The translations under genes were made by a program, and so were the position numbers. From a virus: DNA of 5,643 bases. The stretch spans positions 1 through 5,643 of IMG/VR virus record IMGVR_UViG_3300020428_000005, one strand, 5' to 3'. The notes under the pieces are model-generated. The model was not told the origin of the DNA. It did not search any database and worked only from the letters and a program-made list of their open reading frames with translations. Numbering within the stretch: position 1 is the first letter of the stretch; every line of letters starts with the position of its first letter. Positions 1-5,643 of this stretch are shown piece by piece.

Positions 1-55
1 ACAAGGACGGAAAGAATTCATCTTCATGGGATATTGTGGACAGACGAAGTAGAAG
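1..55. repeat. Terminal direct repeat, copy 1 (identical to 5589..5643). It is the overlap of a circular genome, not a biological repeat.
   Basis: Base-by-base comparison shows acaaggacggaaagaattcatcttcatgggatattgtggacagacgaagtagaag at both ends, 55/55 identical. The reading frame is continuous across the join. An overlap of exactly 55 nt is typical of a de Bruijn assembler k-mer overlap on a circular contig. Confidence 0.95.
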
Positions 56-600
56 ATATAAAGGAAAAATGGGGGTATGGATTTGTATATATAGGGGATT
101 ATGTTGGAGATATAACAATAAATTATATAGTTAAATACGTAAATAAAGTAGATGAAAAGCATAAGGAATACAATAGTAAAATATATACGTCCAAAGGTAT
201 TGGGGCAAATTATATGTTACGAAATGATGTTAAAAGGAACGAGTATAGAGGCGATAAAACAATCGAAACCTACAAAAATAGAACGGGAATAGAACTGGGG
301 TTACCAATATATTACAGGAATAAAATATATAATGATCAGCAAAGAGAAAAATTGTGGCTATATAAATTGGATAAAGAAGTAAGATATGTAAATGGTATTG
401 AAGTTGACGTGAGTGAAAGTGATGATGAATATTATAAATTATTATATCAAGAAAGAAGAAAAAACAGGTATTTGGGATATGGTGATGATAGGATAAATTG
501 GGAATTAAAAAAGTACGAGGCAGAAAGGAGACATATAAAAAAAATAGAGAGATTAAAAAAAATTGAAGAAATTAACAATGTTTACAAAAATATGTTGTAA
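1..600 (+). CDS. VP4: Replication initiator protein (VP4 / protein A homolog), C-terminal part. This is the same gene as 5205..5643 and is 5'-truncated only by linearisation.
   Basis: Frame 1 is open from base 1 to the TAA at 598..600. HLH lies at 19..27. The catalytic double-tyrosine motif NYIVKYVNK has Tyr codons at 124..126 and 136..138 and closely matches the YVAKYVNK active site of phiX174 protein A as I recall it. The M at 34 in the ORF track is an internal Met, not the start. Confidence 0.93.
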   Translation, partial: TRTERIHLHGILWTDEVEDIKEKWGYGFVYIGDYVGDITINYIVKYVNKVDEKHKEYNSKIYTSKGIGANYMLRNDVKRNEYRGDKTIETYKNRTGIELGLPIYYRNKIYNDQQREKLWLYKLDKEVRYVNGIEVDVSESDDEYYKLLYQERRKNRYLGYGDDRINWELKKYEAERRHIKKIERLKKIEEINNVYKNML

Positions 601-605
601 GTTTG
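598..605 (+). promoter_or_regulatory. TAAGTTTG, which matches the Bacteroides-type -7 promoter consensus TAnnTTTG and overlaps the Rep stop codon. Weak candidate.
   Basis: The same octamer recurs at the capsid stop codon (3694..3701). Both open the two longest intergenic regions. No clear -33 TTTG partner is seen, and the degenerate motif is expected a few times by chance. Confidence 0.15.
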
Positions 606-691
606 TTAAAATAATGTTCACAAGTCTGTGGATTTGACATAGTATAAATTATAAGACAAATTCTACGGAGGAGTGAGGTAAAACGCTATAA

Positions 692-1147
692 ATGTTAATA
701 ACTCATATAACACTCAAAAGAACACATCAAAATAAATATAGCTTGTTTGGACATTTAACAGTGCATACGAAAAGATATGGAAGGTTTATGTTTAATACGG
801 TAGAGAATTATGAAGCGAAAATCGAAGAAGGAGAGTATCCGATATATAGGGAGTATAGTCCTCGTTTTGGTCGTTTTATGCTTACGGTGGGCGGAGTACC
901 TAGAAGACGAGGCTTGCGTATACATGCTGGTAATAGTGGTATTGATTTCAGAGGGTGTATTGGGATCGGACAATTTGGAATAAGTGAAGATATACCGCAA
1001 TATATATATAATAGCAAGTTAGCCGTAGCAAGTTTAGAAAGATTAGTAAAACAAAGAACAACAATAAAAATTATAGATAATGAAAAGAAAGATATTGGAA
1101 TTATTAGTAGAGAAGTTAGTACCGGAATTGGTGAGACTGTTAGTTAA
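692..1147 (+). CDS. Accessory protein resembling the DUF5675 family, with a His...Gly-Cys signature reminiscent of L,D-transpeptidase-like (YkuD-like) enzymes. It is a candidate cell-wall-active or lysis enzyme; the function is unproven.
   Basis: This is a 151-aa ORF that starts directly after an in-frame TAA (689..691). The segment IEEGEYPIYREYSPRFGRFMLTVGGVPRRRGLRIHAGNSGIDFRGCIGIG fits my memory of the DUF5675 pattern (IPxGxY...YSPKF...L..VPxRxxILIHxGN...D..GCI.xG). The His codon is at 923..925 and the Cys codon at 956..958. It is the only gene here preceded by a Shine-Dalgarno-like GGAGGAGTGAGG (667..678). I see no obvious signal peptide or TM segment. Confidence 0.7.
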   Translation: MLITHITLKRTHQNKYSLFGHLTVHTKRYGRFMFNTVENYEAKIEEGEYPIYREYSPRFGRFMLTVGGVPRRRGLRIHAGNSGIDFRGCIGIGQFGISEDIPQYIYNSKLAVASLERLVKQRTTIKIIDNEKKDIGIISREVSTGIGETVS

Positions 1148-1182
1148 AGTACTAGAGGAAGTAACTAAATTGGATATAGACA

Positions 1183-1383
1183 ATGATGGAAAAGTGGGTG
1201 ACTGAAAGCATATATGTTGACGTAGATACAGGCGAAATAATTAACAAAATATTAACTAAAAAGAGAAATTATAAAATAATAAGAAAAACATCAAAAATTA
1301 AAAATTATGACGGACAAAAAAGTAAAACAATTATCAACGAATGTAAAAGACATCAATACGGATTTGAATTCGGAAAATGTTAA
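1183..1383 (+). CDS. Hypothetical small basic protein (66 aa).
   Basis: The ORF fills what would otherwise be a 159-nt gap in a compact genome. It has a K/R-rich centre (TKKRNYKIIRKTSKIKNYDGQKSK) and an N-terminal YVDVDTGEI segment. Its last 77 nt overlap the next ORF in another frame, which is common in Microviridae. No recognisable domain and no SD. Confidence 0.45.
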   Translation: MMEKWVTESIYVDVDTGEIINKILTKKRNYKIIRKTSKIKNYDGQKSKTIINECKRHQYGFEFGKC

Positions 1384-1609
1384 AAGAGAAGTAATAGAAA
1401 ATACACCGTTTACAGTAATAACGGTAGATGAAAAAAGCTTTGGAAGTATGGGTGATTATAGAATTACAGAACCAAAGGATTCAGTGGATGAAGTAATGAA
1501 AGAATTAGATCAAAAAAGTTGGAACAGAATAATCCAAGTATGTATGATACTTATGGATATGAACAATAAAGACAATAAATTAATCGATAAAATCAAAAAA
1601 GAAAAATGA
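1307..1609 (+). CDS. Hypothetical small acidic protein (100 aa), translationally coupled to the capsid gene.
   Basis: Its stop overlaps the capsid start in an ATGA quartet (1606..1609). Composition and codon usage look like the neighbouring genes, and the product is D/E/K-rich. I cannot support any functional assignment; an assembly or scaffold role is only a guess from position. Confidence 0.6.
   Translation: MTDKKVKQLSTNVKDINTDLNSENVKREVIENTPFTVITVDEKSFGSMGDYRITEPKDSVDEVMKELDQKSWNRIIQVCMILMDMNNKDNKLIDKIKKEK
1535..1545 (+). promoter_or_regulatory. Third copy of the motif core (CAAGTATGTAT), inside the 100-aa ORF and 60 nt before the capsid ATG.
   Basis: Exact 11-mer match to 4182..4192. 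It lies in coding sequence, so it could be coincidental given that AAGTATG is generally frequent here. Confidence 0.2.
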
Positions 1610-3696
1610 AAACAACAATCGGAGGAGACCGTTTAGGCTCGGGCAATAAACAAGAAGTAAGTCTAAAGAATTATAATAGAAGTTCACATGATTTGGGATA
1701 TGTGTGGCGTTCAAGTATGTCAAGTGGTACGCTTGTACCCTTTATGACAGAATTAGCACTCCCAGGGGATAGTTTTGATATAGATATGGCGTGTGATGTG
1801 AAGACGTTACCAACAATCGGACCATTATTCGGAAGTTATAAAGTACAATTAGACGTATTTCAAGCGCCAGTAAGATTATACCAAGGAAAATTGCATATGA
1901 ATATGTTAAATATAGGGATGGACATGTCAAGTGTAAAATTACCACAAATGGTAGTATCAGCAGATTATGTAAGGAGGAATTATAGCGATAACGCACAAAT
2001 AAATTCTAGTTGTATATTATCATATTTAAATGTAAGAGGAGTAGGAAGAACTGACGACAATGCTGACAGTACAATAGCAAGAGAATTCAACGCAGTACCA
2101 TTATTAGCATATTGGGATATATTTAAACAGTATTATGCAAATAAACAAGAAGAAAAAGCGTATGTAATAAGCGCAAGTGATCAAGGGTTAACTTGGCAAT
2201 GTAATTACGCATTCGTACAAATATTTACAACAGGAAGTGCGCAATATTCAGGTAATATATTAGACACTGAAAGTGGAGAAATAGAAAACGTAACGAGTGC
2301 AACGTTAAGGTTAGAATTTCAATGGGATGCTGGGGGTAGTAAGAAAGGATTATATCCAGATTTAGATGATTTAAATATGAGATATATTAATAGTAGTGGA
2401 AATTATTCAACAGAAAAATTAAAAGACGTATTTACAAATTTAGAATGGGAAGACCCAAATGATTATCAAACAGTAGCAAGATTAAGTGGATGGTTACCAG
2501 AAATAGATCCTGATAGTTTTATAGTACAAGTACAAAGTGTAGATCAAAATGGAATGGTAGGTATAGTGAATATTCAAGGTGAAACACCTGTAAGATTACA
2601 AAGATTTGACCTAGATAGTATAGATAAACAAAGAATGAAAATTCTAGAAGCAGTAGCATCAAGTACACCGGTATATTTAGATAAAGATAGCATAGAGCCA
2701 TATAATAAAGTGTTAAAAAGAGTTAGTGAAGAAACAATATATGAGGTACAACCATGGGCATGTACGTTCGCACAAGAGGGGTTAGCAGTAAAAACATATC
2801 AAAGTGATTTATTTAATAACTGGATAAGCACAGAATGGATTGATGGAGATAATGGTATTAATGCAATTACTTCAGTAAGTACGGTAGGAAATGAGTTTAC
2901 AATTGATGCGTTAAATCTAGCGAATAAAGTATATACAATGTTAAATAGAATAGCAATATCAGGTGGTACGTATGATGATTGGTTAGATGCAGTGTATACT
3001 CATGAAAGAAGTAAAAGTGTAGAAAATCCTATATATCATGGTAGTTTAATAAAAGAACTAGCATTTGAGGAAGTAGTTTCACAGGCGGACGTAACAGACC
3101 AACAAGGAGATCAACAACCATTAGGAACGTTAGCGGGACGAGGAAGATTAACACAAAAGAATAAGGGTGGTAAAGTGAAAATTAAAGTAGATGAGCCATC
3201 ATATATTTTAGGGATAGTGAGTATTACACCAAGGGTAGATTATAGTCAAGGAAATAAGTGGGATATGAATTTGAAAACAATGAATGACTTACATAAACCG
3301 GCATTAGACGCGATTGGATATCAAGATTTAGTGACAGACCAATTGGCGTGGTTTGATACAACAGTGGATGCAGACGCAGACCCAGATAATTATGATTTCG
3401 GGAATGTAACATATAAATCAGTAGGTAAACAGCCGGCATGGATTAATTACATGACAAATGTGAATCAATGTAGGGGAACGTTTGCAGAAGAAAATAATGC
3501 AATGTTTATGACGTTAAATAGAAAATATGAGAATTTTGGTACTGGTATTTATGATATAACAACATATATAGACCCAACGAAATTTAATTCAATATTTGCT
3601 GAAACAAGTATAAGTAGCCAAAACTTCTGGGTACAGATTAGTAATAGAATAACGGCAAGAAGAAAAATGTCAGCTAAGGTAATACCAAATTTATAA
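1606..3696 (+). CDS. VP1: Major capsid protein (Microviridae VP1 / phiX protein F homolog), 696 aa.
   Basis: This is the longest ORF. The N-terminus SHDLGYVWRSSMSSGTLVPFMTELALPGDSFDI, the block LLAYWDIFKQYYANKQEE, the block ALNLANKVYTMLNRIAISGGTYDDWLDAVY...NPIYHGS, and the C-terminal FWVQISNRITARRKM all follow the conserved layout of microvirus F/VP1 capsid proteins as I remember it. The size fits the large Alpavirinae-type capsids rather than phiX F. Confidence 0.93.
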   Translation: MKTTIGGDRLGSGNKQEVSLKNYNRSSHDLGYVWRSSMSSGTLVPFMTELALPGDSFDIDMACDVKTLPTIGPLFGSYKVQLDVFQAPVRLYQGKLHMNMLNIGMDMSSVKLPQMVVSADYVRRNYSDNAQINSSCILSYLNVRGVGRTDDNADSTIAREFNAVPLLAYWDIFKQYYANKQEEKAYVISASDQGLTWQCNYAFVQIFTTGSAQYSGNILDTESGEIENVTSATLRLEFQWDAGGSKKGLYPDLDDLNMRYINSSGNYSTEKLKDVFTNLEWEDPNDYQTVARLSGWLPEIDPDSFIVQVQSVDQNGMVGIVNIQGETPVRLQRFDLDSIDKQRMKILEAVASSTPVYLDKDSIEPYNKVLKRVSEETIYEVQPWACTFAQEGLAVKTYQSDLFNNWISTEWIDGDNGINAITSVSTVGNEFTIDALNLANKVYTMLNRIAISGGTYDDWLDAVYTHERSKSVENPIYHGSLIKELAFEEVVSQADVTDQQGDQQPLGTLAGRGRLTQKNKGGKVKIKVDEPSYILGIVSITPRVDYSQGNKWDMNLKTMNDLHKPALDAIGYQDLVTDQLAWFDTTVDADADPDNYDFGNVTYKSVGKQPAWINYMTNVNQCRGTFAEENNAMFMTLNRKYENFGTGIYDITTYIDPTKFNSIFAETSISSQNFWVQISNRITARRKMSAKVIPNL

Positions 3697-3701
3697 GTTT
3701 G
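3694..3701 (+). promoter_or_regulatory. TAAGTTTG, the second copy of the octamer matching TAnnTTTG, overlapping the capsid stop codon. Weak candidate.
   Basis: Identical octamer to 598..605. It lies at the start of the 3697..3784 intergenic region. Confidence 0.15.
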
Positions 3702-3716
3702 GTAGAGTGTGTTTTT

Positions 3717-3756
3717 TAGTTTAGTTATAAGGGGGTGAAAGTCCCCCACTAAACTA
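3717..3756 (+). other. Intergenic stem-loop: a 9-bp outer stem, a 5-nt asymmetric bulge, and a GGGGG/CCCCC inner stem with a 7-nt loop.
   Basis: tagtttagt (3717..3725) pairs perfectly with actaaacta (3748..3756). ggggg (3731..3735) pairs with ccccc (3743..3747) around the loop tgaaagt. tataa (3726..3730) is unpaired. It is the most striking GC cluster I noticed in this AT-rich genome and lies 21 nt downstream of the capsid stop. No T-tract follows it. Confidence 0.8.
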
Positions 3757-3766
3757 GTATGTATAA
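3756..3766 (+). promoter_or_regulatory. Shared upstream motif AGTATGTATAA, copy upstream of the 119-aa gene. It contains a perfect TATAAT at 3762..3767.
   Basis: Exact 11-mer also present at 4184..4194. It ends 18 nt before the ATG at 3785. Function unknown; it could be a promoter -10-like element or another cis signal. Confidence 0.3.
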
Positions 3767-3784
3767 TAATTAAATAATAAAAAA

Positions 3785-4144
3785 ATGTATAAGTATAGAA
3801 AAAGAAGTAAAACAATATTGGGTGGAGTTGAAAAAGTAGAAGGAGAACCAATAGAGCATAAAATTGAAAGAATTGTAGATAATAATGAACCAATTAAAGA
3901 TGGAGCACCAGAGATATTTACAGAAAGAAAAGATGGTGTAGTTAGTGCTTATAATATTAGAACTGACAGATGGGAAATAGCGACAGATGGAATGTCATTA
4001 GTTGAAAGAAGTATAACTGCAAAAAGAGATAATAAAGGAAAAAAACCAGAAACAGAAGAAAGTAAAAAAGAAGCAAAAGTGGTTGATATTAAGGACGGGG
4101 TACCCGAGTCAATAAAAGGCACAGGAACGGATACTAGTAAATAG
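3785..4144 (+). CDS. Conserved small microvirus protein (119 aa), possibly an internal scaffolding or assembly protein (VP3-like). The function is uncertain.
   Basis: The ORF lies between the capsid and pilot genes. The core EGEPIEHKIERIVDNNEPIKDGAPEIFTERKDGVVSAYNIRTDRWEIA resembles a small protein I recall as conserved in Alpavirinae-like genomes. The tail is lysine/glutamate-rich. The upstream leader is A-rich with no SD, as for the other genes. Confidence 0.7.
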   Translation: MYKYRKRSKTILGGVEKVEGEPIEHKIERIVDNNEPIKDGAPEIFTERKDGVVSAYNIRTDRWEIATDGMSLVERSITAKRDNKGKKPETEESKKEAKVVDIKDGVPESIKGTGTDTSK

Positions 4145-4181
4145 TATTACAACAGAGTAGTACGCATTTATTCTTATATAT

Positions 4182-4194
4182 CAAGTATGTATAA
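4182..4194 (+). promoter_or_regulatory. Shared upstream motif CAAGTATGTATAA, copy upstream of the pilot gene.
   Basis: 4184..4194 is identical to 3756..3766, and 4182..4192 is identical to 1535..1545. It ends 21 nt before the ATG at 4216. Confidence 0.3.
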
Positions 4195-4215
4195 CGCTTT
4201 TAAAAAAGCGCGAAA

Positions 4216-5205
4216 ATGACAAATAATTATAATAATAATAATAATAATAACAATAATATGAATTGGCAAGCAGCAGCAACTCAAGGGTTATCGATGTTAG
4301 GTGGATTTATTGGGGCAAATAATCAACACCGAAGACAAAAAGATTTAATGGGAATTCAGCATCAAAATCAAATGAACTTAAATAGACAGGGACACAGATT
4401 GCAAATGGATATGTGGAAAAATACATCATATCCAGCTCAATTAAAAATGATGAAAGAAGCGGGATTATCACCAGGATTAATGTATGGTGGTGGACCAGGT
4501 GCAAGCGGAACAACAGGAAGTCAAGGTGGTGGAAGTGCAGTAGGTGGAAATGCTCAAGCATTTAAAACAATGGATTTATCAAATATGTTGATAGCGTCAG
4601 AAATAGCTAAGAAAAATGCGGAGACAAAAAACATAGAGACGGATACTAAAAAGACAGGGGGAGTTGATACAGAAGAAGCAGAACAAAGAATTGCTAATAT
4701 GAAAGAAAGCAAAGATTATATAAGATTGCAAAGTGATTATCAAAAAATATTAAATGCGAATAAGCAAGACGAAATTGATGCATTCTTGAAAAATATTGGA
4801 CAAGAGACAAGTAATTTGAAACAACAGTTTGATTTGACAGATGAACAATGGGGAGACTTATTAAAAGAACAAATGGGTAAGGCGTTGACGGCAGTAGAAA
4901 ATAGTAATTTATTGAAATCAAAAGTGGAGTTAACTGATGCACAAGAGCAAGAGATATGGGAGAAATTAGAAATAGCATATAATAAATTAGAATTAGAGGG
5001 ATTAAGTGTAGATGCGTCATTAAAACAAGCTGACGCAAGTATGATTAAAGCAACAGTAGAAGAAGCAATGCGACCAATGGAACTAGAAGTTGATAAGAAG
5101 AAAATTATGGTTAATAGTATGACGAATATAATTACAAGTATTATTAGCGGAATAAGTAGTTCGGCAAGTTCATTCGTGGGAAATTATACGAAGAATAATA
5201 TGTAA
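4216..5205 (+). CDS. VP2: DNA pilot / minor capsid protein (VP2 / phiX protein H analog), 329 aa.
   Basis: It sits between the capsid-side genes and Rep. It has a hydrophobic-glycine N-terminal segment (GLSMLGGFIGA), a Gly-rich linker (GGGPGASGTTGSQGGGSAVGG), a long charged heptad-like region (about aa 130..290) and a Ser/Ile-rich hydrophobic C-terminus (MTNIITSIISGISSSASSFVG). This architecture is typical of microvirus pilot proteins. The assignment rests on architecture and synteny, not on recognised sequence identity. An alternative start is the ATG at 4258. Confidence 0.75.
   Translation: MTNNYNNNNNNNNNMNWQAAATQGLSMLGGFIGANNQHRRQKDLMGIQHQNQMNLNRQGHRLQMDMWKNTSYPAQLKMMKEAGLSPGLMYGGGPGASGTTGSQGGGSAVGGNAQAFKTMDLSNMLIASEIAKKNAETKNIETDTKKTGGVDTEEAEQRIANMKESKDYIRLQSDYQKILNANKQDEIDAFLKNIGQETSNLKQQFDLTDEQWGDLLKEQMGKALTAVENSNLLKSKVELTDAQEQEIWEKLEIAYNKLELEGLSVDASLKQADASMIKATVEEAMRPMELEVDKKKIMVNSMTNIITSIISGISSSASSFVGNYTKNNM
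4222..4257 (+). repeat. Imperfect AAT trinucleotide repeat encoding NNYNNNNNNNNN at the N-terminus of the pilot protein. The perfect (AAT)6 core is 4231..4248.
   Basis: Read directly: aat aat tat aat aat aat aat aat aat aac aat aat, followed by atg at 4258..4260. Confidence 0.9.
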
Positions 5206-5643
5206 TGTGTTTATATCCTAAATTAATTAAAAATAGGAAATACACAGTAACTAAAAAAAATGGCGGGAATGTACCGGAACTCAACGATATGAGGGCAAAG
5301 TATGTTCCCGTTGGTTGTGGAAAGTGTATGGAATGTAAGCGACAAAAGAGTCGTGAATGGCAAGTAAGATTAGCAGAAGAAATTAAGATAAATAAGAATG
5401 GGAAGTTTGTAACACTAACGTTTAGTGATGAAGAACTACAAAAGCTAGATGATATAATACCGGAAGAATATACAGGGTACGAAAGGGATAACGAAATATG
5501 TAGATTATCAGTAAGAAGATTTTTAGAAAGATGGCGTAAAAAGTATAAAAAATCAATTAGACATTGGTTAGTTAGTGAAATAGGTGGGACAAGGACGGAA
5601 AGAATTCATCTTCATGGGATATTGTGGACAGACGAAGTAGAAG
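5205..5643 (+). CDS. VP4: Replication initiator protein (rolling-circle HUH endonuclease; Microviridae VP4 / phiX protein A homolog), N-terminal part. It continues through the circular junction into 1..600, giving a full protein of 327 aa.
   Basis: The ATG at 5205 overlaps the TAA stop of the upstream gene (TAATG). My manual translation reads MCLYPKLIKNRKYTVTKKNGGNVPELNDMRAKYVPVGCGKCMECKRQKSREWQVRLAEEIKINKNGKFVTLTFSDEEL...RHWLVSEIGGTRTERIHLHGILWTDEVE. It contains a CxxCxxC cluster (Cys codons at 5316, 5325, 5334), RCR motif 1 FVTLTF (5406..5423) and HUH motif 2 HLH (5607..5615). The frame is open to the window end and in phase with 1..600. Confidence 0.93.
   Translation, partial: MCLYPKLIKNRKYTVTKKNGGNVPELNDMRAKYVPVGCGKCMECKRQKSREWQVRLAEEIKINKNGKFVTLTFSDEELQKLDDIIPEEYTGYERDNEICRLSVRRFLERWRKKYKKSIRHWLVSEIGGTRTERIHLHGILWTDEVE
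5589..5643. repeat. Terminal direct repeat, copy 2 (identical to 1..55). The unique circular unit is 1..5588.
   Basis: Same 55-nt string as 1..55. Position 5589 begins a codon in the Rep frame, just as position 1 does. Confidence 0.95.

Follow-up and report, generated by a model that had tools for sequence, protein, structure and literature searches.

A DUF5675 gene with a membrane-protein frame embedded in it: a possible overprinted lysis cassette in a clade of marine microviruses

The DNA analysed here (the window) comprises the 5,643 nucleotides (nt) at positions 1 to 5,643 of IMG/VR virus record IMGVR_UViG_3300020428_000005 and is a complete circular microvirus genome, in which a free-standing gene for a protein of the DUF5675 family lies downstream of Rep. 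Inside that gene and shifted by one frame is a further open reading frame (ORF), ORF57, that reads as a small membrane protein and is kept open by selection. There is about an even chance that the locus is a compact overprinted lysis cassette, with DUF5675 as the endolysin and ORF57 as the holin. Somewhat more tentative is the fuller picture of a marine microvirus clade with an overprinted holin-endolysin system, made up of a new Cys/His class of endolysin, a +1-frame holin and a third peptide, ORF41. The features at the locus are as follows:

601..691, + strand: intergenic region between Rep and the DUF5675 gene, conserved in an alignment of 10 relatives, with GAGGTAAAA at 675..683
692..1147, + strand: DUF5675 gene, downstream of Rep, ATG start, 151 amino acids (aa)
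810..983, + strand: ORF57, 57 aa, candidate holin or small lysis membrane protein, +1 frame within the DUF5675 gene
914..970, + strand: block with the putative catalytic motif LRIHAGNSGIDFRGCIGIG, residues 75-93 of the DUF5675 protein, His78 at 923..925 and Cys89 at 956..958
1080..1205, + strand: ORF41, 41 aa, +1 frame, spanning the DUF5675 stop codon

An earlier reading of the sequence alone (the sequence-only reading) had placed a free-standing 151-aa gene after Rep and likened its product to DUF5675. The ORF at 692..1147 is present as it claimed, and the likeness proves to be a full-length one. In a profile hidden Markov model (HMM) search the protein matches Pfam DUF5675 (PF18925) over positions 1-113 of the 114 in the model, with E 1.2e-18 and 67.5 bits, membership being judged by a bit score above the gathering threshold of 26.7 across the full model. 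It also matches PHROG 1501, a family of unknown function, with E 1.9e-14. Invariant in 64 homologs are R10, G20, G47, Y49, S56, V69, R76, H78, N81, G88, C89 and G93, and those other than V69 are all present in the window protein. The His78...Gly88-Cys89 arrangement singled out earlier thus holds across the family, with H78, G88 and C89 conserved in at least 90% of 150 diverse DUF5675 representatives. The AlphaFold2 model of the window protein has a predicted local distance difference test score (pLDDT) of 82 overall and a predicted template modelling score (pTM) of 0.74, with pLDDT 85-90 over residues 1-130 and below 50 over 135-151; the folded domain would take up roughly residues 1-130, the tail being modelled at low confidence. 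The protein stops at residue 151 (TAA, 1145..1147) and most relatives extend to 163-167 aa, and such a variable end fits a weakly constrained tail. Searches of NCBIfam and PADLOC gave no match for the window protein, on which account a defence-system reading was dropped, and a sequence search of the PDB, with the single sequence or a 64-sequence profile, found no match.

The family is large, with at least 7980 matches in a word-indexed search and at least 14,770 clusters at 50% identity in an exhaustive one, and its named sources are mainly Bacteroidota. GenBank phage records hold it in about 21 microviruses (Dulem 260, bajarodmic, Peromfec, Dipodfec, Ciona and porcine), in all of them as a 'hypothetical protein', and it is also found in Cellulophaga phages; the crAss-like phage proteins are annotated 'transpeptidase catalytic domain protein'. 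The fold recurs as a domain inside very large phage proteins (BFVD A0A8S5VTR0, 868 aa; A0A1L7N1E2 of Ralstonia phage RP31, 1251 aa; A0A7H0XAI4, 1210 aa), which may be virion-associated wall enzymes.

The His/Gly-Cys arrangement had suggested a YkuD-type L,D-transpeptidase fold, and here a sequence comparison (hhalign) and a structure comparison (Foldseek) independently point to the same divergent form of that fold. A DUF5675 profile from 231 sequences aligns with a Tlde1-like profile built from 121 sequences at a probability of 69.6% and P 4.2e-5 over 80 collinear columns, with most of the signal in the catalytic block. The blocks pair as TAIPeGxY with GPiPEGxY, GIRIHaGN with GFSIHGG and GCI with GCI, setting the catalytic block against GFSIHGG....GCIDL of the Tlde1-like domains. 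In the same set-up the known-homologous pair of Tlde1 and E. coli YkuD reaches P 0.0027, a reversed template gives P 0.55 and 30 column shuffles give P of at least 0.12. On the structural side a model of a typical member, P0111 (pLDDT 95.6, pTM 0.89), compared by Foldseek with 350,542 PDB chains finds Tlde1a (7UMA) as the best match, at a TM-score of 0.51 and probability 0.89, and its remaining matches have TM-scores of 0.23 or lower. Among the 150 diverse members 36 touch Tlde1_dom and 10 touch YkuD, the single-domain members matching Tlde1_dom at E 0.04-0.25 only, which is sub-threshold yet collinear. There is also a natural fusion, the 282-aa metagenomic protein P0220, in which DUF5675 (residues 4-117) is followed by a Tlde1/YkuD domain (146-270).

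Several results weigh against this assignment and with it against the lysis reading. The window protein matches neither YkuD nor Tlde1_dom of Pfam at E up to 1. Foldseek, which led from the P0111 model to Tlde1a, finds no PDB match for the model of the window protein itself, and even the 7UMA match has an E of only 0.13. The strong Pfam matches to Tlde1_dom (9.2e-10) and YkuD (4.6e-08) were rejected as signs of DUF5675 homology, being located on the separate, fused second domain of P0220 and not on DUF5675. Shuffles of 10-column blocks reach P 6.7e-5, and so the catalytic block supplies most of the hhalign score. For L,D-transpeptidases the motif in the literature is H-x(14-17)-(S/T)-H-G-C-h, whereas DUF5675 has H-x10-C with E/R-G-C-I, lacking the His before Gly-Cys; its spacing of 11, which the sequence-only reading had rightly called shorter than the classical one, is below the published 14-17, but a value of 10 in the Tlde1-like domain of P0220 shows that short spacing exists in the superfamily. 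With E. coli YkuD alone hhalign gives DUF5675 a P of 0.059, and an HMM of E. coli YkuD has no match among the 150 DUF5675 representatives. When the 64-sequence alignment of DUF5675 was set against six YkuD domains from E. coli, the probability was 0.3%, both profiles having an effective sequence number (Neff) of about 3 and being uninformative. In favour of the fold, a 2026 preprint (bioRxiv 10.64898/2026.04.11.717860) takes a similar view of DUF5675, 'C82-like, but significantly different'. Neither the profile-profile nor the Foldseek result is decisive alone. What stands of the proposed fold is the hhalign P of 4.2e-5 and 7UMA as top hit, and what does not is any significant direct YkuD or Tlde1 hit in Pfam for single-domain members, so DUF5675 is a probable remote relative of the L,D-transpeptidase superfamily (PF03734/PF10908, MEROPS C82) and is not filed as a member of it.

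That DUF5675 acts on peptidoglycan is suggested above all by the company it keeps elsewhere. Bacteroidales chromosomes carry a conserved module of four genes, for proteins of 94 aa, 107 aa and about 800 aa (PrimPol/VirE-like) and, in the closing slot, DUF5675. In 73 modules from different species this last slot holds DUF5675 (52 modules), a PHROG 873 family (10) or Peptidase_M15_3 (4). The protein in the PHROG 873 slot is of about 145 aa, carries 'RGIRNNNPLNIR' and matches PHROG 873 'endolysin' (E down to 6e-42), and its family also matches a tail-injection transglycosylase family and PDB 7Q47 'Endolysin'; the Peptidase_M15_3 slot protein is PHROG 894 'endolysin'. Non-orthologous displacement by two endolysin families speaks for DUF5675 having a similar task, and interchangeability with known endolysins, a mark of an endolysin class, is seen through this shared slot. 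The module itself lies among housekeeping genes, often in several copies per genome (loci L038-L121), and a minimal mobile element or a satellite are possibilities for what it is.

The rival view that DUF5675 is not peptidoglycan-acting, but a thiol enzyme or binding protein with another substrate tied for example to the Bacteroidales primase-like module, seems very unlikely. The family is formally of unknown function, with no direct significant match to a characterised enzyme family, and its Bacteroidales copies adjoin a PrimPol/VirE-like gene and not a prophage lysis cassette; yet the very same slot is occupied by two bona fide muralytic families, P0220 joins DUF5675 to a Tlde1/YkuD domain, the structural and the profile comparison both lead to Tlde1a, and PADLOC offers no defence match. 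The surroundings in other phages may be set beside this. In the cultured Cellulophaga phage phi39:1 (1969..3783) DUF5675 is gp30 among the small membrane proteins gp27, 28, 29, 31 and 32, of which gp31 and gp32 overlap in the manner of a spanin pair, and the gp27-gp32 run has the appearance of this Bacteroidota phage's lysis cassette. In Dulem virus 260 a 71-aa protein (4038..4253) comes right after DUF5675 with a 4-nt overlap and has an N-terminal hydrophobic segment and a lipobox-like LTSC, and it could be an adjacent, non-embedded membrane or lipoprotein partner.

The sequence-only reading had proposed the protein as a peptidoglycan-acting lysis candidate, a proposal that the slot shared with two endolysin families supports, but its premise, that microviruses have no enzymes for lysis, no longer holds: the accessory lysis genes known from these phages include M15 peptidases and amidases (Roux et al. 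2012, PMC3394797; Kirchberger 2022; Zhang 2024). Enzymatic lysins are thus already known in microviruses and DUF5675 is a further candidate of that kind. A Cys/His wall enzyme serving lysis is a reasonable prediction with indirect support from several directions.

The DUF5675 protein itself shows no signal peptide or transmembrane (TM) segment, with a maximum Kyte-Doolittle (KD) value of 0.57, and its way to the wall had accordingly been seen as a difficulty. For the protein the absence of a TM segment stands, but for the locus it does not, as ORF57 is embedded in the +1 frame. Its translation, MKRKSKKESIRYIGSIVLVLVVLCLRWAEYLEDEACVYMLVIVVLISEGVLGSDNLE, begins with MKRKSKKES, continues with two hydrophobic segments on either side of an acidic loop and ends in SDNLE, the N-terminus carrying a charge of +4 and the loop −4, and the mean KD being 2.15 over residues 10-26 and 2.32 over residues 36-52. 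Among + strand ORFs of 25 aa or longer no other is TM-like. From its sequence ORF57 is a candidate overprinted holin that would solve the export problem, and the missing route to the wall is probably answered by this predicted membrane protein.

Selection keeps ORF57 open. In all 11 distinct relatives first examined the ATG at gene nt 119, the stop and the pattern of ORF57 are unchanged, the peptides being 33-98% identical; its length is 57 aa in ten of these and 68 aa in the other, by way of an upstream in-frame ATG. That upstream ATG (gene nt 86, L024/L125) is a possible dual start. In the same 11 relatives the +2 frame of the DUF5675 gene never has more than 37 open codons. Under synonymous randomisation, in which the DUF5675 protein sequence is fixed and the codon usage is that of the genome, the ORF57 frame is open in 0.08% of cases or fewer, the expected longest +1 ORF being 24-28 codons, and its hydrophobicity exceeds expectation by at least 3 standard deviations. 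A conditional form of the test, with codons shared with the window frozen and only changed ones resampled, gives P(open) 0.001-0.036 in ten relatives. The same randomisation is not significant in unrelated DUF5675 genes (Dulem 260, P 0.31; Dipodfec, 0.25; crAss cr10_1, 0.11), and a 72-codon +1 ORF in the Dulem 260 gene was set aside as no longer than codon usage predicts. Five divergent relatives, at 43-47% identity, keep the ATG at gene nt 119-122; four have an ORF of 52-57 aa and the fifth a 24-aa ORF with a single TM segment, the per-gene P values being 0.010-0.079 and Fisher's combined P over the five lineages 1.5e-4.

These data bear directly on an explanation in which DUF5675 is a lysin and ORF57 a non-functional, lineage-specific by-product, the wall being reached through ORF41, leakage or host factors. 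It would account for a synonymous-site suppression in the overlap that is not significant (p 0.24), for hydrophobic alternate-frame ORFs being frequent noise in AT-rich genomes, related ones included, and for a second hydrophobic segment that is weaker in the divergent relatives, one of which (L128, start at nt 122) has its ORF cut to 24 aa and a single TM. It sits poorly with a P(open) of at most 0.0008 given the protein and 0.001-0.036 with inherited codons frozen, with a start position kept in 16 of 16 distinct relatives down to 43% identity, with non-significant controls in other DUF5675 genes and with ORF57 being the one TM-like ORF of the coding strand, and so is judged unlikely. TM-like ORFs were also surveyed around the DUF5675 genes of other microviruses, but noise in AT-rich genomes made the outcome uninterpretable.

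In the cassette reading DUF5675 would be a small thiol enzyme of the cytoplasm, its fold a divergent, Tlde1-like form of the L,D-transpeptidase one. His78 and Cys89 would attack a stem-peptide bond of the peptidoglycan by way of an acyl-enzyme intermediate. If Tlde1a is a guide, this would most likely be an L,D bond (L,D-carboxypeptidase or endopeptidase), and both the enzymatic activity and this bond specificity are predicted. As it has no signal peptide the enzyme would require a membrane lesion to reach the wall, and ORF57, with a basic cytoplasmic N-terminus and one or two membrane spans, would make that lesion as a holin; its expression, membrane insertion and holin role are likewise putative. 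ORF41 would possibly be a further accessory component. Periplasmic Tlde1a, an L,D-carboxypeptidase of the fold proposed here, causes cell swelling and death, but a pure L,D-carboxypeptidase leaves cross-links uncut and rapid lysis is then not guaranteed. Holins are small, with at least one TM segment, and are encoded beside or within the endolysin gene, as is ORF57 with its 57 aa embedded in DUF5675. They also have a hydrophilic C-terminal domain that is highly charged and as a rule basic, and the tail of ORF57, at five residues and a net charge of −2, is short and acidic, unlike that of typical holins. Among PHROG families nothing matches ORF57 better than E 0.13, and no spanin is evident.

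A different division of labour has ORF57 lyse the cell by itself, in the manner of phiX174 E or MS2 L, by blocking wall synthesis or otherwise triggering autolysis, with another wall role for DUF5675, such as a virion-associated aid to DNA entry or wall remodelling. Such an overprinted single-TM lysis gene is an established microvirus solution (E inside D), the divergent relatives keep the first TM segment best and L128 retains one TM alone, and the DUF5675 domain does occur inside very large, possibly virion-associated phage proteins. However, wherever ORF57 occurs it is physically tied to the gene for DUF5675, which itself shares its slot with free-standing endolysins and lies among small TM proteins in the cultured Cellulophaga phage, and nothing indicates the packaging of a 17-kDa enzyme in a T=1 capsid. 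This division seems unlikely.

ORF41 is the second overprinted frame and selection keeps it open too. The peptide begins with basic residues, continues as an amphipathic or hydrophobic helix and closes with an EF-hand-like LDIDNDGKVGD. Compared between sub-clades, ORF41 reaches an identity of 0.70 and the DUF5675 tail encoded by these nucleotides 0.35, and in that overlapping tail the DUF5675 protein length varies from 151 to 167 aa and pLDDT falls below 50. The end D.[DN].DGK[VI]G recurs at the same place in Ciona microviruses (L030, 4973-5215; L033, 4842-4985) and in the divergent relatives, and in Ciona65 an end of this type is joined to a TM segment within one 80-aa ORF. ORF41 may be a third component of the cassette. 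Overlapping ORF41 is ORF66, which gene callers missed on related contigs. Its motif, W..S.YVD.DTGEI...EC[KR], is conserved not only within the clade but also in microviruses that are related by their capsid and have no DUF5675 (flamingo, porcine, Manatee Spring and Antarctic), and ORF66 is probably outside the lysis module. A 159-nt spacer after the DUF5675 gene was rejected, given that ORF41 and ORF66 are conserved there.

An exact 55-nt terminal direct repeat (1..55 = 5589..5643) means that the last 55 nt repeat the first 55, and so the unit is 5588 nt, with a guanine-plus-cytosine (GC) content of 32% and every gene on the + strand:

5205..600, + strand: Rep, 327 aa, wrapping the contig ends
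1183..1383, + strand: ORF66, 66 aa, +2 relative to DUF5675, overlapping ORF41 and the start of the scaffold-like gene
1307..1609, + strand: scaffold-like gene, 100 aa
1606..3696, + strand: capsid, PHROG 514, E 1.3e-45
3785..4144, + strand: gene for a protein of 119 aa
4216..5205, + strand: pilot protein

The N-terminus of the pilot protein has ten asparagines in a row (MTNNYNNNNNNNNNNMNW; 4216..4260, + strand), the opposite strand of which gives poly-Ile/Tyr ORFs.

The region upstream of the DUF5675 gene had been singled out as the longest noncoding one, and at 91 nt it does exceed the 88 nt after the capsid gene, but by only 3 nt and with ORF41 and ORF66 counted as genes. It carries a Shine-Dalgarno (SD)-like motif, seen at no other gene of the genome as had been claimed; the conserved part is GAGGTAAAA, with GAGG ending 13 nt before the ATG, whereas the GGAGGA part is not conserved. 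The absence of SD motifs from all other genes fits a Bacteroidota-type host, an assignment that we infer. A scan of 560..1400 for sigma-70 promoters and terminators gave no signal above chance. The locally GC-rich stretch at 880..960 is confirmed, at 48% against 32% for the genome (top 1.6% of GC windows), but it is not the genome maximum and coincides with the overprinted ORF at 810..983, inside which GC is 43% against 28% in the remainder of the DUF5675 gene. That GC and the SD motif speak for horizontal acquisition, as the sequence-only reading had suggested, does not hold: the bump is the dual-coding core, and the gene is syntenic and ancestral across the clade. A local GC bump in an AT-rich phage can therefore mark dual coding, with horizontal transfer not required.

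Close relatives, at 57-100% identity, are 5-6-kb marine contigs that include Tara Oceans samples, with the gene order Rep, DUF5675, ~100-aa gene, capsid, ~120-aa gene, pilot. Because they share this order, with DUF5675 syntenic after Rep in all clade members, the gene is a stable component of the clade rather than a recent arrival. Among GenBank capsids the nearest show 50-54% identity. DUF5675 is present in just two of six relatives of this kind, the Ciona-gut microviruses, and again right after Rep; the Rep-to-scaffold interval thus acts as a slot for accessory genes, and within one sub-lineage DUF5675 is an old occupant of it. The Dulem, Dipodfec, Peromfec and bajarodmic microviruses have a DUF5675 of about 30% identity between the pilot gene and Rep. 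The closest relative of the Dulem 260 protein is a crAss-like phage protein at 44% identity, which suggests, by inference, more than one acquisition of DUF5675 by microviruses.

Host lysis by most microviruses is poorly documented, and here one 456-nt stretch holds a candidate wall enzyme and a candidate membrane partner. Only phiX174 E has a worked-out lysis mechanism, and surveys of microvirus gene content set aside overprinted genes outside the Bullavirinae. What is new is a conserved overprinted membrane-protein gene within an enzyme gene, and a second overprinted ORF; no report of either was found. If the fuller picture with ORF41 is true, overprinted lysis genes would be documented for the first time outside the phiX174-like Bullavirinae, DUF5675, with its many thousands of clusters, would gain a function, and a Cys/His L,D-peptidase type would be added to the endolysins for Gram-negative and Bacteroidota targets.

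Among known systems the nearest to DUF5675 in fold is Tlde1a, the Salmonella type VI secretion system effector (PF10908), together with YkuD (PF03734, C82): all are small, mostly-beta domains with a His before Gly-Cys-hydrophobic. In Tlde1 the IPeGxY and IHxG...GCI blocks are collinear with those of DUF5675, and 7UMA, as above, is the best PDB structure match; Tlde1a stands alone as a domain and is toxic once in the periplasm. DUF5675 differs in its spacing of 11 and not 14-17, in having no (S/T)HGC histidine and in lacking a significant direct Pfam match. The nearest proposals for the family itself concern LysPd160, a DUF5675 'C82-like' candidate (bioRxiv 10.64898/2026.04.11.717860), and a crAss-like protein, which belong to the same Pfam family and carry the same proposal of a lysin whose fold is L,D-transpeptidase-like; no statement was found that LysPd160 activity was demonstrated. 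Both are proteins of double-stranded (ds) DNA phages, and neither proposal mentions microviruses or overprinted partners.

Closer in setting is Peptidase_M15_3, which Roux et al. (2012, PMC3394797) proposed to be the endolysin that other microviruses have acquired. These putative Microviridae endolysins are likewise accessory, free-standing wall peptidase genes of about 130-170 aa beside Rep or VP1, and Peptidase_M15_3 and DUF5675 fill the same slot in the Bacteroidales modules. The fold is unrelated, a zinc metallopeptidase as against the Cys/His of DUF5675, and for M15 genes no overprinted membrane partner is reported.

For the overprinting there are two precedents. PhiX174 E, within the scaffold gene D, is like ORF57 a +1-frame, lysis-related microvirus membrane protein with an N-terminal TM segment, and it acts alone, by inhibiting MraY. 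The other is hol187 of Staphylococcus aureus phage 187, reportedly a small holin-like gene that occupies the +1 frame within ply187, and if so it would resemble the pair of ORF57 and DUF5675 in lying wholly inside an endolysin gene. Phage 187 is said to be a dsDNA phage that infects a Gram-positive host and makes a CHAP/amidase endolysin, whereas here a single-stranded DNA microvirus, a Gram-negative (probably Bacteroidota) host and DUF5675 are involved. In contrast to E, which is embedded in a structural gene, ORF57 is embedded in the gene for a putative muralytic enzyme, and a two-component system is thereby implied.

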